A stretch of 60,233 nt of DNA, filler included, from Globobulimina sp. (lineage: Eukaryota), in NCBI GenBank assembly GCA_003354225.1. It is 13 parts of 13 records of this genome, joined end to end, with 100 filler letters (N's around TTAATTAATTAA, not from the genome) between each part and the next. Parts side by side here need not be neighbours in the genome. Positions count along the whole stretch, not along the records: positions 23,218 to 27,759 come from PIVH01001143.1; 12 more parts are not named here. One strand, given 5' to 3'. Shown here piece by piece: positions 4,545-59,897 of the stretch. The notes under the pieces were generated by a model. That model did no database searches and was not told the DNA's origin. It saw only the letters and a list, made by a program, of their open reading frames with translations. Both the position numbers and the translations under genes were made by a program. Position 1 is the stretch's first letter. The number at the start of each line of letters is the position of its first letter.

Positions 4545-4644
4545 NNNNNNNNNNNNNNNNNNNNNNNNNNNNNNNNNNNNNNNNNNNNTTAATTAATTAA
4601 NNNNNNNNNNNNNNNNNNNNNNNNNNNNNNNNNNNNNNNNNNNN

Positions 4645-9188: not shown

Positions 9189-9291
9189 NNNNNNNNNNNN
9201 NNNNNNNNNNNNNNNNNNNNNNNNNNNNNNNNTTAATTAATTAANNNNNNNNNNNNNNNNNNNNNNNNNNNNNNNNNNNNNNNNNNNNTTA

Positions 9292-10341: not shown

Positions 10342-12414
10342 ATGACCCGCTCAAATGAACAGACGCAAAAATGGCTGCGAGTGAATAAATTAATTGATGA
10401 TATTGATGAAAATGTATTGACAGAATGCTCAAATCAACTCGCAAAAACATTTGGTGGTCCCGAGAAATTACTGAATTTTGTTTCTCGATTTAGTAATGAC
10501 CAACAATTAGAAAATCTGCACAAAATGATCATAGCAAACAAAGTGAATTATGATGAAAAAAATAAACATGACAATGATTTTGAATTTGCAATGGATTCGG
10601 AATTCGAACAAGTACCAACCGCAAAGGCATGTTTTCCATCGTTACCGAATGAATTAATTAGCTGCATTTGTTCCTATTTAACGCGTGGTGCTGTTACAAC
10701 ATTTAAAATGGCATCAAGGCAAACTGCAATCGTATGTTTAGAGGAACAAACCAAAATTACTGTTTGTTCAATCAGTATGAATTATTTATGTGATAATGGC
10801 GGATTAAATTTACATTCCTTTGCTCAGCAACCAAGTGGCTCAAAATCAAGATATCATCAAAACGCCAGATTTTATACATTGATGGAAGAGTGGAGCAAAT
10901 GTATGGATATTCCAGAAAATTATGTATGGGCATTTCAAAATATTAATGCACCCAAAATATTCATTCATTCATTATCTCTGCAACTTTGCGATTCTAATTC
11001 GTTACGTTTGCAACCATTGCTACAATTTAGGCCTCAGGCCACTTACCACCAAAGTAGGCCCCACGGCACTTTTTTTATTGTTGACTCCCGAAAACTAGTG
11101 CTTATAAATCAAAATGGTGCACGAAAAATCAACAGTAATGATACCATCGCATCATTACAAGATTATAAGTTGATGGTCTTGGAATATTTTAACATAATAC
11201 AACAAGAAACAAGCGTTGTTCAACATTTATTGTATCATGATACTGTACAACTTAATGATATTTTAGAATACATTGAATTTAATTTTATTTATGTGGAGGG
11301 AATGGATAATCAATGGCATGCACAATTAACTATGTTATTGAAACAAATGGAGAGTGATCCACAACATCCAAAGTTAACACTATATTCTCATCGTCGCGCA
11401 AATTATCATAGTGATCGTTTCTATGTATTTCGTAATGGTGTCGTTGGAGGCAGTGCGTTATGTACATTCCAAATGAATGACAATCATCCATATTGTACCA
11501 GAGCCGATCTTTTTAATCCAATGTCTTTTAAAATACCACAACCAAATGGATTTTATACAAATATAAAAGCTTTTTGTGACACACGACAATTAGCTGTGAT
11601 GTTTCGAAGAAATTACTCCGATTTGGAAGCACACTTAAAAGACAAAGGCAAAATTTCAAAATCAACGCAAGATATAATTAAGAAGCTATGTTCTTCGAAT
11701 GGGCAATCAATGAAATTTAAAACAAAGGAAGCCAGCTCCCAAATTCGCATTAAAATCGCAAATTTATTTGATAATGTTATACCAGCTACAAATATAGAAC
11801 TATTTCGGGGTATTTCAAAGCGCAGAATTCCATGGACTTCGGAATTGCAACGCTTCCACAAAATTGAATTTGACATCGTGTCGTATGATACACAAAGATT
11901 TGAAGAAGATGATTGTGGGATGTATGAAGTCAAACTTTTTGCACCTGACATGTGCCCACACCCATATCTATCCAACCTGCCTACAGAGATTTTATTGAAA
12001 TATAAAACATCTTTTACTGCAAAAGAATTGATACTCAATGCATTGGAAACGGATGAAACTGAAAGGAAAAGGAGCGATGAAAATTATCAATTTGGAATAC
12101 GTTACATACTCACAGCTCACGTAGCTGATGCTGATGAATGTACGATGTCGAGAGCATTTAAAATGGAACAGAAATTGCTTCACAATGCAAATCAAAACAT
12201 AATTGACCGATATAATATATTTATGATTGCAACAAAACCACTCAACAATCCGTATCCGTCCATTTTTCTTAGAAAAATAGAAATCAAATTTGTAGCAAAT
12301 TACGTTGGAGATCGGTTTACGTCGAAGACAAATATTGATGAGGTGCAATATGTAGGAATGCCATTGGAAGTATGGGTCGATAAAAATGATACATTGCAAG
12401 ATGTTATTGATTAA
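10342..12414 (+). CDS. Hypothetical protein with F-box-like motif
   Basis: 690-aa ORF; FPSLPNELISCICSYL resembles an F-box. Confidence 0.55.
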   Translation: MTRSNEQTQKWLRVNKLIDDIDENVLTECSNQLAKTFGGPEKLLNFVSRFSNDQQLENLHKMIIANKVNYDEKNKHDNDFEFAMDSEFEQVPTAKACFPSLPNELISCICSYLTRGAVTTFKMASRQTAIVCLEEQTKITVCSISMNYLCDNGGLNLHSFAQQPSGSKSRYHQNARFYTLMEEWSKCMDIPENYVWAFQNINAPKIFIHSLSLQLCDSNSLRLQPLLQFRPQATYHQSRPHGTFFIVDSRKLVLINQNGARKINSNDTIASLQDYKLMVLEYFNIIQQETSVVQHLLYHDTVQLNDILEYIEFNFIYVEGMDNQWHAQLTMLLKQMESDPQHPKLTLYSHRRANYHSDRFYVFRNGVVGGSALCTFQMNDNHPYCTRADLFNPMSFKIPQPNGFYTNIKAFCDTRQLAVMFRRNYSDLEAHLKDKGKISKSTQDIIKKLCSSNGQSMKFKTKEASSQIRIKIANLFDNVIPATNIELFRGISKRRIPWTSELQRFHKIEFDIVSYDTQRFEEDDCGMYEVKLFAPDMCPHPYLSNLPTEILLKYKTSFTAKELILNALETDETERKRSDENYQFGIRYILTAHVADADECTMSRAFKMEQKLLHNANQNIIDRYNIFMIATKPLNNPYPSIFLRKIEIKFVANYVGDRFTSKTNIDEVQYVGMPLEVWVDKNDTLQDVID

Positions 12415-23217: not shown

Positions 23218-23900
23218 TCAGCAGGAAAATTGTTTTGGCTTTCTTGACAAAACTGACCATCAAAAACGCCGGAAATCATTTGGAGAATTGGTTTCAAAAT
23301 GGACACAAATACAGGATAGTTTTTACAGATCGGGGCAGCGAATTTGGTGGTTTATTTGATTCGAAAGTCAAAGAACTCGGCGCCAAACATAGATACAGTT
23401 CTACATATAGCGCTTCCAAAGTAGCGAAAGCCGAAAGAGCGATACGAACTTTAAGATCGATCATTTCGCGCGTTTTGGCCAACAACAAGAAGATGGATAA
23501 ATCGAAAGCTATTCGATTGGCGGTGGAATATTACAACAATACAGTAAACAGGAGTATCGGGATGAGCCCGAATGAGGCCGAAAAAAATCCTGGCAAGGTG
23601 TTACTGTATGTCATGAATATGCGACAAAAACAACTGAATAAATTGGGTACCGCGAGACCCGCCAAGTATAAAATTGGTGAAAAAGTGTACATAAAAAAGA
23701 ACAAAGCGGATAAGGGCACATTTTTTAAAACAGGTGATGTTACGATACTTCAAGAAGCTTTCAAAATAGATTCCATTGTTCATACGTCACCGTTCTTATC
23801 TTACAAATTGATAAGATTCAACGCACCATGGGGAACGGTCCCAGGTTCATTCCCAGAAAACCGGTTGATCAGAGCCAGTGACTTAAAAAATGGAGACTGA
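23218..23900 (+). CDS. Retroviral-type (rve) DDE integrase, Polinton type, 5'-partial
   Basis: TDRGSEF, AERAIRTLR, YNNTVNRSIGMSP and KYKIGEKV motifs. Confidence 0.9.
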
Positions 23901-24789
23901 TTTTTATTTATTTTTGGACGGAAAACAAGCTCATTTCGACAGAGACACCGGAATATATTATTTCAAAAATGTTATAGAAAATAAATTTCTAAACCCTCAA
24001 ATCGAGTGGCGCGCGGCCATGGTTCATTTGATAGTGCCGGGTTTGGAAGTGATCACAAACCAATGTTACATCGATGCTTTGGTTTTATCTCATGACCAAG
24101 AAACGATAGTGGCGCAGGAAAGGTTTACCTTCGATGACGAAACTACAATTTACAGTCCGACACAATTCGCTGTCGCTGTAAATGCAATCTTCAACAGCGA
24201 AAAATTTAAAAGTTTTTTCAATCCAGGAACCAGTTCCATTATAAAATTGGCTTACGACACGGCAAGAGAAAAGTTTTCATTGACCCTGTTATTTAAATCT
24301 GATTTGAAATTCGCTATTCGTTTTTCGGACAAGATGCAAGTAAAATTGGGCATGAAAGAGAATTTCGAACGTTCCGGACACAATTGGTTAAGACCTCAGC
24401 ATCCTAACACAAATGTCACATTCAGAGCCACGGACCCCCAATTGTTAGCCGACGGTGCGCAACTTATGTTTATCCACTTAAACGGTGCCCAAGATGAACC
24501 GGCACCTGGCGATCAAATGGGAGCCAGGGCACCAATTTTGGATGCAGTAAATTTGACAAATTACAGAGTGGCGTCCGACAGCTTAAACATTTACTATGGT
24601 CTGAATGGGTACATAGATTTTCGACCATCGAAGCCAATTTACAAGAGGATTAATTTGAGTCAAGTAAATATACTGCAGTTGAAATTGGCCAACGAGAATT
24701 TTGAACCAATCAGGTTCAGACAAGCGGCTTATCAGTCCATGAAGATAAGACTTCATTTTAAGCCTGGAAAAGCGATCAATTGGATATAG
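23890..24789 (+). CDS. Minor capsid protein (penton)
   Basis: DFYLFL.., EWRAAM, APILDAV, KPIYKRI, IRF..IRLHFK pattern typical of Polinton pentons; gene context. Confidence 0.7.
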   Translation: METDFYLFLDGKQAHFDRDTGIYYFKNVIENKFLNPQIEWRAAMVHLIVPGLEVITNQCYIDALVLSHDQETIVAQERFTFDDETTIYSPTQFAVAVNAIFNSEKFKSFFNPGTSSIIKLAYDTAREKFSLTLLFKSDLKFAIRFSDKMQVKLGMKENFERSGHNWLRPQHPNTNVTFRATDPQLLADGAQLMFIHLNGAQDEPAPGDQMGARAPILDAVNLTNYRVASDSLNIYYGLNGYIDFRPSKPIYKRINLSQVNILQLKLANENFEPIRFRQAAYQSMKIRLHFKPGKAINWI

Positions 24790-24828
24790 TGTAATTTGTT
24801 TCTCCCTTGTTAGTGGTCGCATTTGTAT

Positions 24829-25146
24829 ATGTCGGTTGAAAAAAGAAAGATTTTTCAAGCGGGAGGTTTGACCGAAGCCATAGATTATTTTCCAGACGAA
24901 CTAGTAGACGCAGATTGGGTTCATATAGAGGACACCAAAATAGATTTGGCACCTACGCCCCAAGAAGAACGGTTGATAGATATAAACGCTCAATTGGCGA
25001 GCGAAGAATTGGCCGAAGCCATTCCTAAAAGATTTCCGATTAAACGGAAAAAAGTAGAAAAATCCAAGAGTACTAGAAAAAGGGCAACCAGAGTTAACAC
25101 AAAAACAAAGCGAAAGCAAAAACCAAAAAAGAAAAATGGCAGATAA
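24829..25146 (+). CDS. Small basic putative virion core / DNA-condensing protein
   Basis: K/R-rich C-terminus; FQAGG|L resembles an adenain cleavage site; lies directly upstream of the MCP. Confidence 0.5.
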   Translation: MSVEKRKIFQAGGLTEAIDYFPDELVDADWVHIEDTKIDLAPTPQEERLIDINAQLASEELAEAIPKRFPIKRKKVEKSKSTRKRATRVNTKTKRKQKPKKKNGR

Positions 25147-26734
25147 AGTTCCAGAAAGTTTGGCGTATTACTTTAATGACATCAAAACTGTAGATATTTA
25201 TACACAAGTTAAACGCTACAATCAAAGCGCAGATAATTTTAATGACAGCACTTCCACACAAATCGAATTCAACATTCCGGAAGATAACTTTTCCATGACA
25301 CATCCTACTTTCTTTTTTGGAGCCAAGGTTCAAATAGTAGACAAAGATGGTAAAATATTGCCAGACAAAACAGCTATAGCGCCAATTAATTTCTTAGCTA
25401 CACAATTAGCTTCCGATATAACATTGAAAGTGAGTCGATATTTTTCTAACAAAAATTTTAGTTACAAAATATTTATTTTCTATAGATAGGAAACCAAGTA
25501 ATCGAAGGAGGTTCAGGTAATTTTTGGCTCAGATCTTATGTCGAACAACAATATGTTTGGAGTAAAGAAAGGAAAGAAGGCAGGAACCAAGAGCTCGCAA
25601 TTTATTGTAAGTGCAGAAAAAAATCGCTCAAGCAGTTGTACCATTATTTAATTTTACAGACAAAGATGCTGCCGGATCGTTCGACAATTTTACAATAGAG
25701 ACCGTCGACGACTTTCCGCCGAATCCAGGATTCGTTAAACGGCAATCAATTTTTAATAAAGGAGAAATTGTTCAAATTTTCCAGGAAATACCGTTCAATT
25801 TCAGTAAAGTGGGTCAGGATATTCCTCCAGGTGTTCCCATTACAATTACAATGCAAAGACAAGACCCCAAGGTTGACATAGTTTTTGATTGTATATTTCA
25901 AAATGTAAATGTTATTATTTGTTGCAGGTGTATTTGTGTTTTGATCCAGCGACAGCTAATGTCAACTATGCAAGAATAAAGTTGATCGACCCCAAAATTT
26001 ATTACACTCGTAAAAGATACTTACCAGTTTATATGGATGCCTTAAGACTACATATGGAGTCTGGAAACTATGGTATATTTCCCATGAAAAGAACGGCCGT
26101 TTTGGGACCCAGGCTGATTCCAAGCGGAGTTCCCTATTTCTCTTTTAAACCTATCGAAAATGGGCAAATTCCGATGGCGGCATTTTTGTTCTTCGTTCCC
26201 GAATCGGCCGCTTCTGGCAATTTCAATTCACATCCATTTCACTTTGACAACATGAATGTCAATAATATAACGGTGGATGTAAACGGAGTAGAAATGTCAA
26301 GGTTAGATCCAAAATGGGACCTGACATTGCCATCCCGCTCCAGTTGTCTGGAAATGTTTTTGCAACAGATACAAATTTTAACTGGGCTGGACAACGCTAT
26401 GACTACAAATGACATCGAATACAAGGATTTTGTTCGAGACTATGTGGTTTTTCCTATCAAATTTTGTCAAAATCAAATTAGTCGAGATTTTAAAGAGCCT
26501 TGCGGCGCAGGTGAAGTGCATATTCAGGTCAAATTCAATGCTCCTACAGCAAGATTGTAAGTTTTTCGATGAGCGCAAACAAAAGCTGCATTACATACAT
26601 AGTTTCCTTTCAGGACCAACGCATATTTATGGTGTGTGTTTCAATCGACTGTCTATTTAACGACTGGAGGGGTGACCAGAAGTTCATTCTTGCCTGACTC
26701 TGCGCATGATAGCTATGTTATCGAAAATCCTTGA
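25136..26734 (+). CDS. Double-jelly-roll major capsid protein, 458 aa, 5 exons (25136-25429, 25486-25606, 25660-25871, 25928-26556, 26614-26734)
   Basis: Four GT..AG introns give one continuous ORF with IEFNIP, IAPINFL, YYKDAAG, NPGFVKR, GNFNSHPFHF and GEVHIQVKF motifs. Confidence 0.85.
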
Positions 26735-26737
26735 ATT

Positions 26738-27211
26738 ATGGAAAACGAAATATTGGCCGAAATTTTAATGAAACTCAAAATAACGAAAAATTATTTTCGT
26801 GGTGTTTACAGGAGCTATAATTTAAATAAAGTGGAAATTGATTTATCAAATAAAAATTTTGTTATTGTAAACACAGCAAAGGCAACCGAAACTCGCGGAC
26901 ATTTTATATTATTTTACATATCGCCGAAAGCTAAATTTTACCTTGACAGTTTAAATGAAAGTGTTACAAGCTACTCTGAAAAAATATTCGACTTTTATGA
27001 GAAATTTGGTCCATTTGTGTCGCCACCATTCAGGGTTCAAAGTTTACGGTCAAATGTTTGTTCTTATTACATAATATTCTGGTGCGTGCAATTAGCGGGA
27101 AGCAAGAATTATACAAAGATCGATGCCTTGTATGAAAGCTTTGATGTTCACAAACTCCAGGCGAATGACACCTTAGTTACGAAATATGTTAGAAAATTGT
27201 TGAATGATTGA
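26738..27211 (+). CDS. Adenain-like maturation cysteine protease
   Basis: FRGVY, IVNT....GHF, YLDSL, VQS..SNVCSYY (His-Asp-Gln-Cys set). Confidence 0.85.
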   Translation: MENEILAEILMKLKITKNYFRGVYRSYNLNKVEIDLSNKNFVIVNTAKATETRGHFILFYISPKAKFYLDSLNESVTSYSEKIFDFYEKFGPFVSPPFRVQSLRSNVCSYYIIFWCVQLAGSKNYTKIDALYESFDVHKLQANDTLVTKYVRKLLND

Positions 27212-27759
27212 CACGACCAGATCCGCTGATAAATTCAATTTATTGTTAATTTACATTAGTCTAATAAAAGTATCTATGGAAGAATGTGTGTCGTTCGAAA
27301 ACGCTCTGCTGAGCGCGCCATTCAGTTGTATCATTGTTGGTAGATCAGGGCTGGGAAAAACCCATTTGTTAAAAAACATGTTCCTTAATTGGAATCGTCA
27401 CTTCTCAGAGAATGTAGGGGAAAAAATTGCCAAATTTTCTCTCTATTACAAAAGCTATCAAGATGTTTACGAAGAAATTCTAAGTTCATTACCTAAAAAC
27501 TGCATAATCAACTTAAGCAAAGAACTTCCACCCGATTTGACAGAGCTCACTAGTGGTTTCGACAAAAAATCAGGCAAATATCATGCTATTGTGTTCGATG
27601 ACTGGCAAACACAGATAGAGGAAAATAAATCATTACTAAAAATTTTTCTAAATCTTATCAGAGTGAACTGCAGACATAACAACATCATATTATGTGTAAG
27701 TTTTAATTTTATATGGTAAAGATTGCTGCAAAAAAAACTTTTTCAGCTCCTATTGCAAG
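27204..27759 (+). CDS. A32-like genome-packaging ATPase, 3'-partial, intron 27696-27746 (start 27204 or 27276)
   Basis: Walker A GRSGLGKT, Walker B IVFDD, RHNNI; splicing gives RHNNIILC|LLLQ. Confidence 0.85.
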
Positions 27760-27859: not shown

Positions 27860-30800
27860 AATCCCTATGCGTTTCCATGGCACTGTAGGGGGTTGAATTA
27901 CAGTAACAGGCACTTTTGGAGGTGGCGCCGATTTGCTACTGGCTTGACAAGCACCACAATGTTTAACCGCATGTTCAATGTCACGGTCCATTCTTGGCCA
28001 CCAGAAAGTTTCGCGCAACTTTCTTTTCATTCTGACTATGCCAGGATGACCTGTATGACCAATTTGTAACACTTGTTTGCGCAGTGAAATAGGCATAACA
28101 ATGCGATCATTCTCCCGTGTTAGATAACCGTCTTCAACAGATAATGCATCGCGTATTTGGTAGTAAGGCAATAAATCAGCTGTCAGCTTGTGTTTAGCTG
28201 GCCAAGACGTACGCACCATACGCATGACATTTTGTAGTAAAACATCTGTTTTAGAGGCAGCTTTAATATCAGCTAGTGGGAGACCAGTTTCAGTAACACG
28301 TTTTATAACAATTTCGTCGTGAGCATCAACAACCGCAAGCTCTTTAGCCTTTAGTGATAGCCGAGACAAGGCATCGGCTACGGCGTTTTCTGAGCCTTTA
28401 CGGTACTCAGGCACGAAATCAAAAACAGAAAGTCTGTCAGCCCATCGCAAGTATTTGCTAGATTTTCGTTGATCAGCATTAGGGCCAACTAGCAACTTAG
28501 TGAGAGCCGAATGGTCTGTACGCAAAGTAAAAGTTCGGCCAAGTAAATATTTTTCGTAATATTCACAGCCCCATAGTGCACCAAGGAACTCTGTTTCGCC
28601 TACAGAAAGATTTCGTTCGCGTGGTTGCAAAGTATGAGATGCAAACGCAATAGGCACTTCCCGTCCGTTTTGCATTTGACTTAAGACTGCCCCAAGACCC
28701 ACATTTGATGCATCGACCGATAGAATGGATTCACAGTTAGGATCAAACACGAAAATTTTCAGCTTATCTGCTACCATACGTTTAAGTGTAGCGAACGATA
28801 ACTGACAGTGTTTATCCCATGTGAAAGGGACGTTTTTGCGCGTGAGTTTACGCAAGGGTTCAGCAAATGAGGCAAGATCCTCAAGAAAATCAGAGTAATA
28901 GTTGATCATGCCCAAAAAACTAAGAACTTGTTTCTTAGTTCGAGGTTGTGGAGCATCAACAATAGGTTTTACGTTTTTAGGGTCTGGCTTGATGCCTTCC
29001 CCTGAAACAACGTGACCCAAAAAAGTAATTTCCGTGGCGCCGAATATACATTTAGCCAGATTTAATCGAAAATCTTTAGCGGCAAGTTTTTCAAGTACAT
29101 TGCGCAAATTCCGATCATGCTCTTCGCGAGTAGCACCGAAAATCACAATATCGTCAATGTAAGGTAAAGCTCCAGAGCAACCTGCAAGAGTTTGAGCAAT
29201 TAAGCGCTGACAGACGGCTGCGGCGTCCTTTAAGCCCATAGGAAGGCGTTTGTAACAGCGCAAACCCTGATGTGTAAGAGTAGCTGTCAATTGACGGCTG
29301 ACAAGATCAAGCATTATGTGGAAAAATGCTTTCAAAATATCCAATTTGGAGAAAATTTTAGCACCTTTTAGCTCCAAAAACATTTCTTTGATGTTGGGCA
29401 GTGGATACCGATCAGGTATAACAAACTGATTTAGTGGTGATAAATCTGTGGTTACACGGTAGCTACCATCTGGCTTGGGTACCGTAACCATTTGGTGTTG
29501 CCAAAGAGATTTATCGACCGACTCCCAGACATCATTTTCCTCCATTTTAAGCACTTCCTGCTCCACATCATCACGTCGCGCAAGAGGCACCGGACGTAGT
29601 TTTTTAGCAGATGGACGTGCATCACCTGACAGTGTAATATGATGCTCATAGTCTGGAAAGCATCCGATTTTATCAGACAGTAATGTAGGAAAATGTTCCT
29701 TAATGAAGGCTTCATAGTCAAAAGTGTTGCTTTTGACAGCCCGTACTGTAGCGCTGCGGCTGACCAGTTGCAAAGGAACAATGACATTTTTACCAACCAC
29801 AGGTTCGCAGCTGTCGTTTGTGACATAAATGCGAATGTGCAGCATCCGTCCCTGAATGCTAATGTTTGCACTGAAATAACCAAGAACACCTGTGATGGGT
29901 GTGTCATCAAAATTAAGTAGTGGCTCACGCACTGACTTAAGTGGTTTGTCTGAGAAATGTTGGTAGTAAAGAGTCCGCGGGATAGTAGTGGCGTCTGAGC
30001 CAGTATCAAGCTGGGATTCTATACCAACAAAGTCACGCCGACCGAGTATAAACATGATTATAGAAAATTCGGCGGCTGATTTATCAATAGGAGCGGGCAT
30101 AACATGAGTGGCCTTTAGCTTAACAAATCGAACAGATCGTTTAGCTGATTGTTTGCCCTTGTCCCCTTTGGGTGATTTAAGACAACAGCGTGCATAATGA
30201 CCTACTGAACCACAGGAATCGCACGTAACATTGGCAGCAGGACATTCAGCCGATTTATATGCATGCGTTAAAGCACCACATCCCAAACAAGGTTTATGGC
30301 TGTCAGATGGAGCACCAGAGCCTTTCCGAGACTGACCTCCAGCCGCAGAGGAAGAGGAAGACGCACCAGATCGTACACCCGAATTAAAATTAGATTGAAA
30401 TTTAGGTTTGGGTTTATTTGGCAATGTCTTAGAGGCCCCAACTTTAGCGCTATGTCTAAAAGAACTACCCTGAATAACAGACAAATCAGTATTAGCACTC
30501 TCAATAGCATGAATCACTGTAACAAATCCATCTAAATTAAGTTCAGCCTTACGCAACAGTTCCTTTTTCGCTTCGGGATTGTAACATCCGATTGCAAGTT
30601 GAGTAGCCAACTGTTCGTTTTCTTGAGCACCAAACTGACAGTCAACAGATAATGCACGAATTTCTGTAAGATAGTCCTCGACAGTTTCAGACGATGACTG
30701 AGTCCTTGTATGGAAATCGTATCTTGCTCTCACAATACTGATCGCTCGCTGGAAATAGGTTCTGACAGCTGTGGAAAAGTTTGTATAAGTTTCATCTGCA

Positions 30801-31036
30801 ATATGTTCCACAATAGGTTGTGTCGAGAATTGTCGTCCACCTTCCTCGCCAAGTAATTGAAAAAGATAACGGTTTTTTCGTTGATTTGTAAGATGTTGAC
30901 CTTCTGGCAAAGTATCGTCAGTTAGATTAAGCCAATTGTCAAATCGGAAAAACCAGGAACGAAAATTAGGTGGAGATTCACCCGAATTGTCCCAATATGA
31001 TGGAGGTGGTGGGAGATGCAAACGAGCATTAGCCAT
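27860..31036 (-). CDS. Gag-Pol polyprotein, N-terminal part (gag, zinc knuckles, protease, RT, RNase H, integrase HHCC)
   Basis: CDSCGSVGHYARCC, LDTGS, YIDD, VDASNVG, TDHSAL, ADALSR, HTGHPG..CGAC. Confidence 0.95.
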
Positions 31037-31118
31037 TATGATGAAAACAGATAAAGAGACGACAGTAACCACATAAAATGATGATGATAATAGCCAAGTG
31101 GTAATCGAATCAAAGATG

Positions 31119-31126
31119 CGTCGCCA
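31119..31126 (-). promoter_or_regulatory. Primer-binding site TGGCGACG
   Basis: TGG-initiated motif 4 nt after the LTR 3' CA. Confidence 0.75.
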
Positions 31127-31130
31127 ATAA

Positions 31131-31408
31131 TGTGTTCTCGAGTGGCAAGTTTGTTGGGTTTTAATGTTTATTCATCAACAAGTAACAAGCCTAATATAGT
31201 CGACAAAACACAATAGAATCTAGTATAAATCGACCGGCCGCTCCGGACCAAGATCCAACGTAGACTGACTAACCTAGCTCAGCGGCTATCTACATTCAGC
31301 CTCAACATGTGCGCCCCACCAACACCTATATCTATACATAGGAAACGTTACTCATGTAAAAGGCATGCAAATACAATAGTGAACGTTGATGGGGTTGGGG
31401 CCAACACA
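31131..31408 (-). repeat. LTR (278 bp)
   Basis: TGTGTT...AACACA termini; preceded by a polypurine tract and followed by a primer-binding site. Confidence 0.85.
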
Positions 31409-31438: not shown

Positions 31439-32400
31439 TTATGGAGAGGGTGTGTAACGATCTGGCGGGTGTCCCTTAGTAGGGCGCGCGGAGCGCCGCG
31501 GTGTAGGACCAGGACCGGCCAGCTCAGGTACTGTACTTTCAACCGTAGCCCATTGTTGGTCAGGGTCATGATAACGCTTCATTTTCCGTGCGTTCCACTT
31601 TTGACCATCCGATAACAAATACGACCAATGTCCTAAGACTTGGACAACATTTAGAGGTGCCGAAAATGGAGATTGACCTTTTCGGACTGAAGGCAATTTA
31701 ACTTGAACTTTATCGCCTTTTTTAAAGGGACCACGATTAGTAGGCAAATTTTGTGAAACGACGCCTGGCACCAGCTGTTTTTCAGGAGCGTGTTCTTTCA
31801 CCTCTCCCTTGGTAAGGACTGGTTGAAATGCCAAACGCATTTTTCGACCCAAAAACATCTCGCCTGGACTCGCACCAGTAGGCGTAGCAGCTGTGGCACG
31901 GAAATGTTGCAAAAATTGGCGTATACCAATATCCCAGGGAGTGCGAGCAGCATGAAAAGCTTGCACATGGTGTTTTAAACTTCTGTTAAAAACTTCAACA
32001 ACCGCGTTTTCTTGTGGGTTGTACACGGCTGTGCGTATATGACGTATGTCCCTTGAGTGCAAGAATTCTGTAAATTCATGACTCACAAACTGAGGTCCAT
32101 TATCACTGACAAGTTCATCTGGGTTGCCATATCGAGCAAATATGTCAGACAACCAGGTGATTAGCCGTTCAGAAGTGATACTGCCAGTGAGCAACACTTC
32201 AGGAAATTTTGAGTGGTGATCGACAACCACAACAATGAAACGTTGATGTGTAGGAGCAACATCAAATGGACCTGTAATGTCAATCCCTATGCGTTTCCAT
32301 GGCACTGTAGGGGGTTGAATTACAGTAACAGGCACTTTTGGAGGTGGCGCCGATTTGCTACTGGCTTGACAAGCACCACAATGTTTAACCGCATGTTCAA
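31439..32400 (-). CDS. Gag-Pol C-terminal part (integrase DDE core); joins 27860 in frame to give 1339 aa
   Basis: IGIDITGP, VSDNGPQF, NAVVEVFNRSLK. Confidence 0.95.
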
Positions 32401-47782: not shown

Positions 47783-48967
47783 TCAATTTTGTAGAATAAA
47801 TGCCCAGTTAAATGCATCCACAGCACTGACCTGCGCGACACAAGCAATTGGTGTAGAAACCCAGGACGCATTCCAAACCGCAGAAAATTCCGCATAACAT
47901 TGCGGATTCATAGCATTTTGATATATTGCCTTCATTTGGTTATTCACAAACGATATAATTTCTTGTTTAATATTTGCATATTTATTAGTACTATCGGTTA
48001 AAATTACATTTTGATAAAAATACATCAAATATCTCATAAATATCCCTTTAAACTGTGATTGATCACCGCTTGATTCCACCGCTCTGTCTGATTCTTGTTC
48101 GTGTAATATATTATTTATGCCATTTTTCTGTGTCACTAAATTCTTCATCACAGATTGAATAATATTCCATGATACGTCCACAAAGCTCGCATTATGATTA
48201 TCAATCAAATACATTTCGGCTAAACCACCTAATATTACACCTTGATTATATAACCATTCTGTTTGATGATTGTTGTTACAATTTTGCTTATTTGAACTAT
48301 CCATTCCGTCATTAATTAACCACTGTTGATTTATCATTGATTTTCCTGCTAAATTACCGTTTTGATAAAACCAATTCCATAATAAATTGAATTCATTCCT
48401 ATATTTTACATCATTTGTAAGTTTATATAATTTGGCAGTATTCACCAAACCTTGTTCATTGGTTATTGCATTTTTATAATCATTTGGTTTCCAAAATAAA
48501 CCACCACCACAAGTTGATGTATCCCACGCATTTTGCCAAACATAATCGAAAAATTGCTGCGCTTTGGTTAAATATGTTTTGTCGCCTTTATATTCATATA
48601 AACGTATCATTGTTAACGACCACCATTGAATGTCGTCAAAACCTTGCTGGATTCGCGTGGTCTGAGCCTTTGTTACCTCATTGATTGTATTGATAATATC
48701 TTCGCCGCAGAGGTTTGATAACTGGCAGTAATTTATTAATCCTTCGACGGTATTTGCCCAATTCCACCAACCTCCATCATCGTTAAACTTTTGGGATCGT
48801 GAATTATAAAATAACTGTTGCACATTATTTACAGCACGACATGAGATATATTGATTTGATAATTTTAAATTGGCACATGCGGGCGGAACGGTTCCGTTAT
48901 TACAATAATTTTGAGCCGAGGCAATATTATATATTGCCAATAAACAAACAGCAAGAAAGGAAGGCAT
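47783..48967 (-). CDS. Secreted glycoside hydrolase family 76 (alpha-1,6-mannanase-like)
   Basis: FDDIQWW, CGGGLFW, YKNAITN, WLYNQGVILG, QFKGIF; signal peptide. Confidence 0.9.
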   Translation of the reverse strand: MPSFLAVCLLAIYNIASAQNYCNNGTVPPACANLKLSNQYISCRAVNNVQQLFYNSRSQKFNDDGGWWNWANTVEGLINYCQLSNLCGEDIINTINEVTKAQTTRIQQGFDDIQWWSLTMIRLYEYKGDKTYLTKAQQFFDYVWQNAWDTSTCGGGLFWKPNDYKNAITNEQGLVNTAKLYKLTNDVKYRNEFNLLWNWFYQNGNLAGKSMINQQWLINDGMDSSNKQNCNNNHQTEWLYNQGVILGGLAEMYLIDNHNASFVDVSWNIIQSVMKNLVTQKNGINNILHEQESDRAVESSGDQSQFKGIFMRYLMYFYQNVILTDSTNKYANIKQEIISFVNNQMKAIYQNAMNPQCYAEFSAVWNASWVSTPIACVAQVSAVDAFNWAFILQN

Positions 48968-49008
48968 TGCTCAGTGACAAGAATTGACTGGGTCTGGTAA
49001 CTACGAAG

Positions 49009-53527: not shown

Positions 53528-55090
53528 ATGGAATCTCTGTCCTCTTCCTCTTTACCGACTGAATCTGAATCGGATTCATCACTTATTAATCGGTCCGATG
53601 ATATGGAGAGAAGAATCGAATCAAACCCCGAACCAAAAATATTCACTTGGTACATTAATTTTGCATTCTGGACGCCTGGGCCGTACATTATTGTCGCTCT
53701 TTGGTTTTGCACCATTTTAGTTGGCATATTTTATGGCTTCGAAATGTTAAATTTGACAGAAATGGTTTTTAAAGCGCCAAATGGCACTGATGGCGCTAAG
53801 GCGGACGATCAAATGTTGCAACAATTCGAAGCCCGAGAAAATGAGCTGCAGCTTCTTTTATATTATAGCTGTTCAACATGCGGCGCAGTTACGTCATCTA
53901 CAAATTGGATATACAAAAATCAAAATTAAAAAATCATGCATCACCAAAATTTTTAAACAAAAAAGCAGGGAAATTCCGCCATTGAATTGATAGGTCCCAC
54001 AAAGAACGGAAGTAGCACTCCAACCATGCACACAATGTCGGACAAATTGCAAGAATGGCTGGCATCGCAGGGACCATTCGTGTCCTATTCGGACTATTAT
54101 ACAACCACAGCAATGTACAATGGCAGCAATGGCAACATGACCATGGTCGCAGATTTATTCTTCATCAGTGCTTCCAACGCGTCTGCTGTTGGCATCATCA
54201 CTTTTGATAACACCAAAGGAGAGACCGACAAGAACCGATTGGTGGACGACACGCACGACAAATGCAACGAAATCACGCACGAATACGGAGCTGGCACAAT
54301 TACAGTGGAACTGACTGGACTTAACGCATTGGTGAAAGCGATGGCTGACCAGTCCAGAACCGATGTGGGTGTCAACTGCATCATGTTGGTGCCGTTTGCT
54401 TTATGCGTCTTGGCATTGGTGATTCGATCGTGGCGGTTGATGCTGATACCGGTCATATGTTTTATCATTTCGATCTGTGCTTCTTTCTCCATTCTGCGAC
54501 CAGTTTAGTTCGCTTGTTCTATAATTATATGCATTTACGTTACATATTTGCTATTTGCTAAATTGTAGTTTGCCGAACATGTGCTAGCAATCTCTCCCTT
54601 TTGCCCAGCGATTATGATGGCACTTACGGTGGCGATGAGCATTGATTATTCCTTGTTTTTGTTGTCCAGATTTGTGGAGGAGACCCAACGTAAAAAGGCA
54701 ATGATGATCAAACACGAGACCCGCATAGCCATTACGCGTGAAGCTGTTCGGCAGAGTACGCGATGGAGCGGCAAAGTCATTGCCTTGTCCGGATGCATAT
54801 TATCATTAACGTTTTTTGGCTTACTTTTCTATAATGTCAATCTACTGCAATCTGTGGGTTTGGGTTGTGGCTTGGCGGTGATTTGCACCATTTTAGTCAA
54901 TTTGACCTGTACGCCGTCGCTCATATTGATTTTTCCAAACTTTTTCAACAAATTTGGATGGGCGGGCTGTCCCTGTGAGAAAATATCAATTTGTACGAGA
55001 AAAGAAAAGCATTCAAACCAACAATTGCTTATAAATGAAGCATCGGAGTCTGGCCAATCAGCGATATCAGTTTTGCGCTTTCAACAATAA
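53528..55090 (+). CDS. MMPL/RND-family membrane protein, spliced; only the N-terminal half is present
   Basis: VELTGLNAL, AMSIDYSLFLLSRFVEE, SGKVIALSG, LQSVGLG, NLTCTPSL spread over three ORFs separated by intron-like gaps. Confidence 0.8.
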
Positions 55091-55696: not shown

Positions 55697-56367
55697 TATT
55701 AAGACATTTAGTTGATAAATATACGACTGAAACAGACAGCAGAGGGCGCAATTTATATCACGGAATATCATGCGTAAGTGCGCCGATTGTAACTGAAATA
55801 GATAATTTGAAAAAACAAATAATTGATTTAGAAGAAAGACTAAAAGATTTAACCACTAAATCTCAGTCCAGGTATGAATCTGAGTCAGATAAAACGAAAG
55901 CAGATGAAATATTATTAGATATTAAAGGAGTTATTAAGGGATCAGACAATGACAGGAGAAATTGGCAAAAAGCCAAAAATACTTTCTATGTCCGACCAAC
56001 TATACAATCACGAGTAAATTCAGTTCCTGAAAGGAAATATATGCAAAAATATGAAAAATTAACTAATAAGCCTGAATTGGAATTAAAATTACAAAAATGC
56101 GGGCGTGAAATATATCATGGAATATCATGTATATGTACACCCTTCGACAATGACTTATCAATTATGTCATGCTTCGATTATCATGTAGAATTATGCATTA
56201 GCTCCGAGTCAACATGGGCATATTGGGGAAAGCATTATAGACCTAATGGGTGGATTAATTCAATCTCAACATCCGATAATATTAATAAACATAGTACAGG
56301 AAGGATTAGATCGGCATTTAGAACAAGTAATAAATCATTAACATATGACCCTAGTAAGGGAAACTAG
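55697..56367 (+). CDS. LINE B ORF1 C-terminal part
   Basis: Open from the contig edge to TAG 56365-56367; coiled coil and a duplicated GRxxYHGISC motif. Confidence 0.7.
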
Positions 56368-56381
56368 CAAGGGACGGCAAA
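56358..56381 (+). promoter_or_regulatory. Putative -1 programmed frameshift cassette: G_GGA_AAC, 6-nt spacer, GGGACGGCAAA
   Basis: Canonical X_XXY_YYZ heptamer in ORF1 phase, directly before the stop; ORF2 is in the -1 frame. Confidence 0.75.
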
Positions 56382-59300
56382 ACCCGAATACACATTAATA
56401 TTAATAACGACGAAAGTAAAGAAAAAATTAAAGATGAAATTGAAACAATTAAAGATAGAAAAGAATTCAAAACTTTATCTATTTTATATAATAATATTTG
56501 TTCTATTAAAAATAAATTTGATTTGATTGATGAGAATATAAATAAATTAAAACCAATGTTGTTATGTTTTGTTGAAACTAGATTAAAAACTGTATTAGAT
56601 GTACATGACTATAATGAGTATGTCGGCTTCCATAAGATGCAAACAGGTAGGAAAACTGGTGGAATAAGTATATGGGGTCATGAAACTATCAAACCAACTA
56701 AACTAGATATTGACGGTTTTAATGATGACATTAGCAACCACTATTTATGGGTTTTATGCCAAAATGTAGGACCTGTAGCTATCTGTACTGTGTATTTCAA
56801 AAACCAAAGTAATAAAGATAATAATACACATTCATTCAACTTTGAATTAAGTCTTAGATTAATAAATCATATTAAATGGTGTATGAAACAAAACTATGAA
56901 ATCATCATAGTAGGTGATTTCAATGGTCATATTGGAAATGACATATATGGTATTAAAGGGAATCACGAAAACATAAATGATAATGGTTACTTAATAAGAG
57001 AATTTATTAAAAACTCCAATCTTATGCTTACAAATGATTCTGACAAAACGAAAGGCCTATGGACTTGGGGATTCCAAAAACAGAATACAAAACCTCAAAT
57101 ATTAGACCTTTTATTAAATTCTCATACGAGTAAAGTCAAATCTATGTATATAGATGAAACAAATACTCAATTAGGTACAGGAAATGCGGATCATTGTTTT
57201 ATCTATGCAGAATTTGACATTCTGCAAAATAAGAAAAACAAATCCGTTAATATTAATATTAATAATGACAAAAAGAGATGGAATATAACTGACGATATTA
57301 ATTGGAAACCATTCAAAGACAAATTAACTCAATTAGCAACAATTGAAGAAGAAGATATTGACGAAAATACTATATTGAATCATATAACAATTGCAGCCGA
57401 ACAAACAATTGGGTATAAAAAAAAACCCAATAAAAAAGCAAGACTGTCAATTAGAGCCAAAAAATTAAAATCAAAAATTACAGAATTAAGAAAGCAATTA
57501 AGACACGACAATGGTGACAAAAAGATATTATTAAAAGAACTATTTGAAACCATAAAAGATCAAAGAGAATTACGACAAAGATCTGAAATGGCAAGAGTAG
57601 AGAAGGCGCATAATAAATGGCTTGCTAATCCACGAAGAAAATTTCATCAATTATATAATACGATGAAACAATTAAAAAGAGGGATCAGAGAACCAGTAAC
57701 TTTATTAGATAATAATAAGGAACCAATATATGGTACCGAAAACAATAAAAATCATTTATCATCATTTTGGAACGATATTTTTACACTAGGCATCTGGCCT
57801 GAGGCAAACGACGAAATGAAACGAGTCGGATTAGATAATATAATAAAAGGAAATGACAGAATTGAATTAGAAAAAGATATAACAATTAAAGAATTAAATG
57901 AAGCCATATCCAGGCTAAAAAACGGCACTTCTGCAGGGACTACTAATATCCCTCCTGAATTCATAAAAAATTGGCCAGCAGAAATGAAAGAAAATGTGTT
58001 ATTACTCTTTAATAGATGGTATAATACAGGGTACTACCCAGATATTGGCAAAGTACAAGAAGTAACACTCTTACACAAAAAGGGATCAAAAAGTAAAATA
58101 ACAAACTACAGAACCCTGTGTTTAGGGTGTAATTTATGTAAAGTATATTTAACCATTCTCACAAAAAGATTAGAAAAAACAACTGAAGAGAAGAACATAT
58201 TAGGAAATATTCAACATGGATTTCGAGCCAATAAACGGATCGAAGACTGTATTTTGGTAATACAACATACAGTAATGAAAGCCAAAAGATTATCAAAAAT
58301 TAAGAAAAGCACCTTAGCTTTACTCGATATATGTAAAGCATATGATAGAGTATGGCGAAAGGGGCTGTGGAAAAAATTAAGAGACTATGGCTTCCCTGAA
58401 AAATTAGTGAGAGCTATAGAAAGTAGTTATCATAACCCACAAGCAGTAATATCGTTCCAAGACATAGTAACAGAAAAATTAGATATGGAAGTAGGTTTAA
58501 GACAAGGGTGTACAATGTCACCTAGCCTATGGAATCTATATATAGCTGACTTAGGCCGAGAAATAGAAAACAGTAATTTAGGAATTGAAATAGGATCTGA
58601 AGAATGCTCAAAAATAATTTCTGGTATATTCTTTGCAGATGACATGTTATTATTTGCCTCTTCAGAATACAATATGACAAAATTATTAAAAATAGTTGGC
58701 AATTATGCTCAACGTTGGAAAATTGAATTCTCAGGTCCCAAGAGTTTAATTATTCCTATGAAAAGAAATATAGATAGCGAAAAGCTATGGCAATTAGGAA
58801 CAATGTATATATCAGAATCTGACACTAAAACTATTAATATTAAAGAAGAGAAAGAAGCGAAATATCTAGGAATCACCATTGCCAAATCAGGAGTAGATAT
58901 ATTATCACAACATAGAAAGGAATTAGCTGTAAAAACAAGGAAGGAAGTATATAAATGCTTCCAACCAGCATCAGCAACAGCAAGACAAGCCGTATATGGC
59001 ACAAAAATTTGGACAACTTATGTACAACCAAAAGTACTACATGGTATCTCTGCTATAGAATATACCAATAATACTTTTAAAAAAGTTGAAGTCCAACAAA
59101 GAGAATTTATTAGAATGATAGCTAAACTTCCAAGACATACCCATAGAGCGGTATTATATGGAGAAACAGAAATTATGCCTATGCAAATGGAAGCAGATAA
59201 AAGGACAATTAATTATTTATCTCATGTACTAAAACTTAATAATAACAATTTAGTTAAAATAGCTATAAATGAACAATTAATAACTTTTTATAACTATCCA

Positions 59301-59897
59301 AGAAAAAAATCTTGGATTAATCATGCTATTAATTGTTGTAATAAATATAATATCGATTATAGATATATTCCATCTCCAAGTAAGATAAAAGAGGTTATTA
59401 AACAATCATGGATACTTGAATATAATTCCATGTTATTAAATGCACCTACATTAAGAATATATAAACATAAAACCATCCCAAAAATCAATAATAAATTAAA
59501 TCTACATAATGGGTCCGAATTCTGGCTGAAAGCAAAAGGAGGAACCTTATTACTGAATGATAGGAAACATAAACCCTGCACAAGATGTAATAGTAATGAA
59601 ATTGAGAATATTGAACATTTACTATGGTTCTGTACCGATAATTACAGTAATAATGATTATAAAAATAAAATACTCAATATTTGGGGATTATTACCCCAAG
59701 AAATTGAAGGATTAAAAAAACCAATAATAATTCCTAATACTCAAAATCAGTATATTGATGCAAGTATTAAATGGTTATTTGATGATGGCACTCCAGGATT
59801 GGTGATGAACCAAGCCGGACAAATCATCAAACTTCTATATAATATGCGCCCTGAAATAAAAGCATATAATATAATAATTAATGATAGTAACGATTAA
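56358..59897 (+). CDS. LINE B ORF2 (APE endonuclease, reverse transcriptase, CCHC knuckle); frame opens at 56358 with no ATG until 56556
   Basis: YNNICSI, VGDFNGH, ADH; QHGFR, LDICKAYD, GLRQGCTMSP, FADD, YLG; CTRC..ENIEHLLWFC. Confidence 0.92.
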   Translation, partial: GKLARDGKTRIHININNDESKEKIKDEIETIKDRKEFKTLSILYNNICSIKNKFDLIDENINKLKPMLLCFVETRLKTVLDVHDYNEYVGFHKMQTGRKTGGISIWGHETIKPTKLDIDGFNDDISNHYLWVLCQNVGPVAICTVYFKNQSNKDNNTHSFNFELSLRLINHIKWCMKQNYEIIIVGDFNGHIGNDIYGIKGNHENINDNGYLIREFIKNSNLMLTNDSDKTKGLWTWGFQKQNTKPQILDLLLNSHTSKVKSMYIDETNTQLGTGNADHCFIYAEFDILQNKKNKSVNININNDKKRWNITDDINWKPFKDKLTQLATIEEEDIDENTILNHITIAAEQTIGYKKKPNKKARLSIRAKKLKSKITELRKQLRHDNGDKKILLKELFETIKDQRELRQRSEMARVEKAHNKWLANPRRKFHQLYNTMKQLKRGIREPVTLLDNNKEPIYGTENNKNHLSSFWNDIFTLGIWPEANDEMKRVGLDNIIKGNDRIELEKDITIKELNEAISRLKNGTSAGTTNIPPEFIKNWPAEMKENVLLLFNRWYNTGYYPDIGKVQEVTLLHKKGSKSKITNYRTLCLGCNLCKVYLTILTKRLEKTTEEKNILGNIQHGFRANKRIEDCILVIQHTVMKAKRLSKIKKSTLALLDICKAYDRVWRKGLWKKLRDYGFPEKLVRAIESSYHNPQAVISFQDIVTEKLDMEVGLRQGCTMSPSLWNLYIADLGREIENSNLGIEIGSEECSKIISGIFFADDMLLFASSEYNMTKLLKIVGNYAQRWKIEFSGPKSLIIPMKRNIDSEKLWQLGTMYISESDTKTINIKEEKEAKYLGITIAKSGVDILSQHRKELAVKTRKEVYKCFQPASATARQAVYGTKIWTTYVQPKVLHGISAIEYTNNTFKKVEVQQREFIRMIAKLPRHTHRAVLYGETEIMPMQMEADKRTINYLSHVLKLNNNNLVKIAINEQLITFYNYPRKKSWINHAINCCNKYNIDYRYIPSPSKIKEVIKQSWILEYNSMLLNAPTLRIYKHKTIPKINNKLNLHNGSEFWLKAKGGTLLLNDRKHKPCTRCNSNEIENIEHLLWFCTDNYSNNDYKNKILNIWGLLPQEIEGLKKPIIIPNTQNQYIDASIKWLFDDGTPGLVMNQAGQIIKLLYNMRPEIKAYNIIINDSND

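Follow-up and report, generated by a model that had tools for sequence, protein, structure and literature searches.

Positions 23218-27759 of a 60,233-base stretch of DNA from the eukaryote Globobulimina sp. (GCA_003354225.1), referred to here as the window, hold what is probably a fragment of a Polinton/Maverick-type element that is integrated in a genome and depends on nuclear splicing for the expression of its virion genes. The fragment carries a gene for a major capsid protein (MCP) that appears to be divided into five exons by four U2-type GT..AG introns, and a packaging ATPase gene that is predicted to contain at least one more. The host nucleus in which such an element would reside is that of a eukaryote with AT-rich DNA and very short introns, where both nuclear transcription and the host spliceosome would be needed before a full-length MCP or a complete ATPase could be produced. 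The introns would have been gained over a long residence in a short-intron lineage and would by now be ordinary parts of the genes.

Exon-intron structure of the capsid gene

Removal of four segments downstream of the ATG at 25136 leaves an open frame of 458 codons on the plus strand, which is free of other stops and frameshifts and ends with the TGA at 26732-26734, with the next ATG at 26738. Left unspliced, the same frame meets a stop at 25487. Exon 1 (25136-25429, 98 codons) is followed by intron 1 (25430-25485), which is 56 nt long, in phase 0, bounded by GTGAGT..TAG, has a GC content of 0.20 and meets a stop on read-through. Exon 2 (25486-25606, 121 nt) leads into intron 2 (25607-25659; 53 nt, phase 1, GTAAGT..CAG, GC 0.32), the retention of which shifts the frame, its length not being a multiple of 3. 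Exon 3 (25660-25871, 212 nt) carries a lysine-aspartate (KD) motif at its start and is followed by intron 3 (25872-25927; 56 nt, phase 0, GTTGAC..CAG, GC 0.23), whose donor is non-consensus and ambiguous. Exon 4 (25928-26556; 629 nt, 209 residues) would encode the C-terminal jelly roll, and intron 4 (26557-26613; 57 nt, phase 2, GTAAGT..CAG, GC 0.37), in which read-through encounters a stop in the second codon, separates it from exon 5 (26614-26734; 39 codons plus the TGA), which is placed by geometry. An earlier reading of the sequence, the original prediction, had given these coordinates, lengths and phases, a product of 458 residues and a gap of 3 nt to the next ATG, all of which are correct on recount.

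The original prediction also likened the interruptions to spliceosomal introns, a comparison that is borne out by their features. All five segments, the one in the ATPase gene included, are 51-57 nt long and have GT..AG ends; four have a GTRAGT donor and one GTTGAC, the acceptors are of the YAG type (TAG, CAG, CAG, CAG, CAG), and the predicted removal of the four in the MCP gene restores its frame. The introns have a GC content of 0.20-0.37 versus 0.34-0.43 in the exons. When branch-point motifs were sought by eye, intron 1 showed a CTAAC at a long distance from its acceptor, and the other segments had no clear motif.

Frame restoration alone does not single out the proposed MCP introns. Under loose limits (a GT or GC donor, an AG acceptor and a length of 20-300 nt), the four MCP junctions offer 100, 90, 97 and 32 frame-compatible pairs. 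The proposed sites stand out because four of the five donors, that of the ATPase gene included, account for all four GTRAGT hexamers on the plus strand of the contig (shuffled sequences have a mean of 2.5 anywhere), because the segments are uniform in length, and because the exons are collinear with uninterrupted homologues.

Collinearity with uninterrupted homologues

Exon 4 was scored against 1.84 billion representative proteins and returned 140 matches at E<=1e-3, one of which is 94% identical and the others 20-39% identical. Many of these proteins are 400-470 aa long, with exon 4 aligning at approximately residues 220-410, and the uninterrupted MCP homologues that were aligned span 400-480 aa, compared with 458 codons in the spliced frame. 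A family alignment, A1, was assembled from 60 uninterrupted homologues of 399-472 aa and used to build a profile hidden Markov model (HMM).

Scored singly against this model, exon 1 matches profile positions 30-103 (E 1.5e-9), exon 2 positions 106-136 (E 0.021) and exon 3 positions 145-208 (E 4e-12), all at Z=1, and exon 4 matches positions 219-408 (E 1e-41). The profile is traversed once and in order, the frame switches three times, and junctions 1-3 lose almost no positions. The original prediction had proposed a profile HMM check of the spliced protein and a conserved motif rebuilt over junction 2; exon by exon, the check confirmed exons 1-4 as collinear and left exon 5 unmatched, and the lysine-aspartate of the motif is aligned in the profile from the first residue of exon 3.

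The same arrangement is recovered when the exon model is set aside. In a blind scan, both strands of the contig were cut from stop to stop into 224 pieces and compared with the A1 HMM. Only three pieces were significant, which keep the profile order and lie in frames +1, +2 and +1: 25211-25435 (frame +1, profile 30-106, E 3.4e-7), 25659-25871 (frame +2, profile 144-209, E 8.6e-10) and 25961-26551 (frame +1, profile 218-408, E 2.5e-39). The piece that holds exon 2 appears weakly in its expected place (profile 108-140, frame +0, E 8.2). No further MCP pieces were found elsewhere in the window.

Searches for related DNA were negative within their scope. No locus related to exon 4 was confirmed in the viral or metagenome contig collections; P0142 gave none in metagenome contigs, and P0007 and the 5-sequence alignment A3 gave none in viral contigs. 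The idea of an old intron shared by the family at the start of exon 4 was dropped, as the starts of short homologues are spread over profile positions 60-260 with no sharp peak.

Fold and identity of the capsid protein

Judged from the structural models, the MCP family is clearly a double jelly-roll (DJR) capsid protein, which agrees with the identity given to the split gene in the original prediction. An AlphaFold2 model of the A1 homologue P0010 has a mean predicted local distance difference test (pLDDT) score of 88.8, and its best Foldseek matches in the PDB, at E values from 5e-14 to 5e-13, are the MCPs of mavirus (5e-14), Singapore grouper iridovirus (SGIV), Paramecium bursaria chlorella virus 1 (PBCV-1) and Sputnik. 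Pfam models did not match the MCP exons, and Pfam DJR-like_dom matches 5 of the 60 A1 homologues. A comparison of the A1 profile with PDB sequences gave nothing meaningful (best E 0.24).

Exon 4 itself was modelled with AlphaFold2 from 57 relatives (pLDDT 80.8). In an exhaustive VIA-align comparison, ranks 1-13 are all capsid or scaffold proteins, with Z scores from 8.1 to 4.7, and the model aligns to the C-terminal jelly roll of each capsid match. These include Emiliania huxleyi virus EhV-201 (8.1), PBCV-1 (7.4), faustovirus (7.2), p72 of African swine fever virus (7.1), adenovirus hexon (7.0), Sputnik (6.3), mavirus (6.1) and P3 of PRD1 (5.1). The nearest Atlas neighbours of exon 4 are eukaryotic DJR-like_dom clusters (Mollusca, Arthropoda), followed by capsid clusters of nucleocytoplasmic large DNA viruses and virophages. 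For this copy, an N-terminal jelly roll is predicted from the profile matches.

The packaging ATPase, close relatives and constraint

The last gene of the contig was named a packaging ATPase in the original prediction, and this assignment holds; the gene is of the A32 type, with a match to Pfam Pox_A32 above the gathering score. Exon 1 (27276-27695, plus strand, 140 codons) contains Walker A and Walker B motifs and reaches 23.4 bits (cut-off 22.8), covering profile positions 7-128 of 242. Since this match takes in no more than the first half of the domain, the gene must extend past the in-frame stop that follows. The predicted intron (27696-27746) is 51 nt long, in phase 0, with GTAAGT..CAG ends, a GC content of 0.24 and an in-frame TAA, and the first 13 nt of exon 2 (27747-27759) precede the contig end. 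A search for longer homologues of the ATPase found none, and one for near relatives returned P0147 only.

Close relatives bear on two of the predicted introns. P0141 and P0001, which are one sequence on two contigs, share 194 identical residues with exon 4 over an alignment of 208, in which 205 are similar and there are no gaps; 11 of the 14 replacements are conservative, and the sequence ends at exactly the residue where intron 4 begins. P0147 aligns, also without gaps, over 145 positions that comprise ATPase exon 1 and the first few residues after it, with 136 identities (94%), and passes through the intron stretch without a stop, leaving it in a frame other than that of the contig's read-through. 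Read from these protein letters, P0147 and the contig copy probably have introns whose difference in length is not divisible by three. Because the exon is gap-free while the exit frames of the intron differ, only the spliced reading fits both ATPase copies. Two predicted intron sites are thus conserved in relatives at 93-94% identity, and at least two of the introns would predate the 6-7% protein divergence from them.

P0131, a distant MCP homologue of 167 aa, ends at approximately profile position 408, where exon 4 and P0141/P0001 also end. This could represent a contig end or an intron site common to a distant lineage.

Further variants come from X1, the only run in which the contig was found. 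Nine of its 12 single-base variants are synonymous, and within the 299-codon open reading frame (ORF) upstream of the capsid gene all four variant sites are, a pattern that lends weak support to constraint. The copies of the element appear to be under continuing selection for protein function. Fifteen X1 pieces fall on the contig (none from X2 or X3), with no joints, no indels and none reaching past the contig ends, and these DNA-type contigs showed no form of the DNA that lacks the introns and no sequence extending the contig.

Gene layout and neighbouring genes

The window is composed of 13 contigs, each approximately 4.54 kb long. Every spacer between them consists of two runs of 44 N around a 12-base linker with stops in all frames, and the split capsid gene is confined to one contig of 4,542 bases. 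Examples of the spacers lie at 4545-4644 and 9189-9288, and genes that flank a spacer are unlinked. The order along the capsid contig is the end of an integrase gene, the 299-codon ORF, a small basic ORF, the MCP gene, a 157-codon ORF and the A32-type ATPase gene. The integrase and the 299-codon ORF overlap by 11 nt, as do the small basic ORF and the MCP gene, and 3 nt separate the MCP gene from the next ORF; this abutting and overlapping layout is virus-like. An Rfam scan of the contig gave no matches.

The integrase/transposase-like gene (23220-23900, plus strand) is a C-terminal fragment of 226 codons, truncated where the contig begins at 23218. It matches the PHROG families phrog_157, a transposase (E 1.7e-7), and phrog_956 (E 1.5e-5), and a PDB sequence search gave no match. 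The ATG of the 299-codon ORF (23890-24789, plus strand) lies in the overlap with it, and the 105-codon ORF (24829-25146, plus strand), which has a lysine- and arginine-rich tail and reaches over the ATG of the MCP gene, has no significant Pfam or PHROG family. The 157-codon ORF (26738-27211, plus strand) shows, by eye, a His..Asp..Gln..Cys order, which would suit an adenain-like cysteine protease. Its sole match among PDB sequences was to the EGFR kinase (E 4e-8 for one chain, about 2e-3 for others), a phmmer match of 28-37 residues at residues 92-128 over a short hydrophobic stretch, which was taken as chance. An AATAAA hexamer at 27263-27268 (plus strand), between the stop of this ORF and the ATG of the ATPase gene, could serve as a poly(A) signal for capsid-side transcripts. 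It follows the stop of the preceding ORF by about 50 nt and precedes the ATG of the ATPase gene by 8 nt.

These neighbours temper several points of the original prediction. The names "penton" and "protease", given there to the 299- and 157-codon ORFs, are positional guesses, and the description of the virion module as intact is too strong, as neither has a family, the integrase is fragmentary and the ATPase is cut by the contig end. The claim that the integrase is intronless cannot be made for a truncated gene. The label "Polinton-like virus" is imprecise as a name, since the putative rve-type integrase fragment and the MCP clusters from eukaryotic genomes (Mollusca, Arthropoda) point to Polinton/Maverick.

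Other contigs of the window

Among the remaining contigs, eukaryotic genes with RING, Kelch, YEATS, SIR2, RCC1, SAM, XPA, EMC6, GH76 and MMPL domains were found, together with retroelements. The statement in the original prediction that the intron size fits the other contigs agrees with a gap of about 60 nt in the MMPL gene and with candidate segments of 55 and 58 nt.

The MMPL-domain gene (53957-55087, plus strand) consists of two ORFs that match profile positions 59-187 and 195-305; the gap between them, which has TAG as its acceptor and a donor of the GTTTAG type that is weak, is a homology-supported candidate for a short intron. At 12059-12113 (minus strand), a GTRAGT..YAG segment of 55 nt bridges frames of 126 and 147 codons and overlaps a 698-codon ORF on the opposite strand, and at 55774-55831 (plus strand), one of 58 nt bridges frames of 14 and 177 codons; both are candidate host introns of similar size.

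An uninterrupted GH76 gene (alpha-1,6-mannanase) lies at 47786-48970 (minus strand), with nearest Atlas clusters of fungal origin (Ascomycota, Basidiomycota), and is a hint at the main organism of the record, or at a transferred gene. Retroelement ORFs occupy 27863-31171 (minus strand), 31442-32398 (minus strand) and 56358-59894 (plus strand); their content comprises a Ty3/gypsy-type pol (RVT_1, RNase H, integrase zinc domain), an rve core and an RVT_1 ORF of 1179 codons. The contig at 41783-46321 has the most deviant tetranucleotide profile, with a correlation of 0.19 to the other contigs, and a 1157-codon ORF without a Pfam family. No polymerase domain was found among the other ORFs of the window that were scanned (19 + 32), and the capsid contig itself ends at 27759.

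Points against the interpretation and alternative explanations

Several observations weigh against reading the contig as a Polinton/Maverick-type fragment that depends on splicing. On the capsid side, the match of exon 2 is weak when taken singly, and exon 5 has no match to the C-terminus of the A1 family profile and is therefore carried by its geometry; junction 4 would be argued from geometry and the relatives, and the same holds for the ATPase junction. Intron 3 has a poor donor, GTTGAC, with an in-frame alternative at 25881 (GTTTTT, 47 nt). A Foldseek search with the exon 4 model gave nothing at E<=1e-3 (best PBCV-1, 0.04), and its VIA-align Z scores, none above 8.1, fall in a range that the tool itself rates as middling, so that assigning the fold to this copy depends mainly on homology to the DJR family. 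Among the other genes, the integrase fragment reaches 15.4 bits against Pfam rve, under the cut-off of 32.6, the 299-codon ORF matches neither a Pfam nor a PHROG family and gave no homologue in a word-based search at E<=1e-3, the 157-codon ORF has no meaningful Pfam or PHROG family, and only 13 nt of ATPase exon 2 are on the contig. The contigs that yielded the X1 variants have a low depth (about 4-6) and may stem from the source sample itself, so that the variants are non-independent and may in part be errors. Finally, the tetranucleotide correlation of the contig with the pooled rest is 0.63, below that of 8 of the 12 others (0.76-0.87) and above that of three (0.19-0.55).

This last point is also the first argument for the rival that survives best, namely that a small eukaryote sequenced along with the main organism, for instance a nematode or another micro-animal, or a free virus of it, is the source of the contig, which is nevertheless unlikely. 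The nearest relatives of the MCP in Mollusca and Arthropoda clusters, as opposed to the fungal ones of GH76 on another contig, fit such an origin, as do the five short-intron-like patterns on this contig versus 0-1 per strand on the others. Interruptions of about 55 nt, however, are also present elsewhere (the MMPL gap and the segments at 12059-12113 and 55774-55831), and a mobile element may deviate in composition; two of the three contigs with lower correlations carry retroelement ORFs. The X1 depth is low and uninformative on the host. Composition does not settle the host, which could be an animal.

The second rival explains the segments as introner-like copies, that is, copies of an intron-generating transposon, inserted after integration, as in the Maverick-Polinton-like proviruses of dinoflagellates. 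The uniform size of the five segments would suit this origin, but they are no more alike than shuffled controls, with pair scores of -5 to 7 compared with a control mean of 1.0 (sd 4.5, maximum 15), and many similar copies were not seen within the contig. As none of the introns is a copy of another, a recent burst of introners is disfavoured, and this explanation is very unlikely.

The weakest rival, a decayed pseudogene in which random insertions or frameshifts happen to resemble introns, can draw on the fragments that ORF callers report, on the numerous chance frame-compatible GT/GC..AG pairs, on the short contig with both ends truncated and on the 96% of vertebrate Maverick loci described as degraded in the available text of PMC8097293, but is highly improbable given that all five breaks are 51-57 nt long with GT..AG ends and their four GTRAGT donors are all those on the strand, that junctions 1-3 neither lose nor duplicate profile positions within 458 otherwise uninterrupted codons, that the relatives' exons are gap-free, with mostly conservative replacements, and that the X1 variants are mostly synonymous.

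The interpretation as an integrated Polinton/Maverick-type element that needs nuclear splicing is thus preferred, with both ends of the element lying beyond the 4.5-kb contig. The occurrence of splicing is inferred from the sequence, particles may or may not still be produced, and a role of splicing as a regulatory gate on particle production is speculation.

Relation to known systems

That core Polinton genes are treated as intronless, as the original prediction had stated, is supported by four sources in so far as their available text goes. In vertebrates, intact Mavericks have intronless ORFs (PMC8097293), and in nematodes, introns are described in cargo genes only, with intronless core genes (10.1101/2022.07.12.499685). 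Large surveys of integrated Polintons, Polinton-like viruses (PLVs) and virophages in protists rely on ORF-only gene calling with prokaryote-style ORF finders, on the ground that endogenous viruses "do not contain introns" (PMC10120064; PMC9356565). In Krupovic et al. 2014, the words intron, exon and splic- are absent (PMC4028283). In full-text searches, with most subscription papers and supplements outside their scope, no publication turned up in which ordinary short introns interrupt the capsid gene of a Polinton or PLV.

The element shares with nematode and vertebrate Polintons/Mavericks a compact module with a DJR MCP, an A32/FtsK-type ATPase and, possibly, an rve-type integrase, the last represented here by a fragment that scores under the cut-off. 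The nematode Maverick MCP is likewise described, in the available text, as structurally matching the capsids of mavirus, Sputnik and giant viruses (10.1101/2022.07.12.499685). Unlike the intronless core genes described for these animals in the text at hand, two core virion genes of the present element are predicted to contain five short introns.

The nearest precedent in the available literature is the presence of introners within Maverick-Polinton-like proviruses of dinoflagellates, which are integrated, of the same broad kind, carry spliceosomal-type introns and have kept their capsid genes (PMC11957031). As far as the accessible account extends, those introns are copies of transposon families, whereas the segments described here are mutually dissimilar, far shorter than typical transposons and, for two of them, common to relatives that are 93-94% identical. 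Endogenous and nuclear giant viruses with spliceosomal introns, in the portions of their descriptions that were available, also indicate that viral genes that reside in or depend on the nucleus may bear host-type introns, although these viruses belong to a different phylum and have much larger genomes. Adenoviruses are nuclear viruses with a DJR capsid and a related protease and packaging ATPase, and their late structural mRNAs need host splicing, which joins leaders to intact coding bodies. In the present element, by contrast, the capsid coding sequence itself would be split into five exons.

Significance

It is possible, though rather doubtful, that the contig represents a still-active lineage in which the encapsidated genome itself carries introns in its capsid and packaging genes. 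If so, particle production would be strictly dependent on the nuclear splicing machinery of a short-intron host, the virus would be tied to hosts that recognise introns of 51-57 nt, and surveys of uninterrupted ORFs would overlook a whole class of live elements. More generally, ORF-only pipelines would score an intron-split copy as debris, so live or domesticated elements would be under-counted in short-intron hosts. A five-exon capsid gene that looks constrained would provide a concrete case in which to ask how host-type introns are gained and retained by a virus-like element, and whether they are signs of a long vertical residence, of expression in the nucleus or of host restriction.

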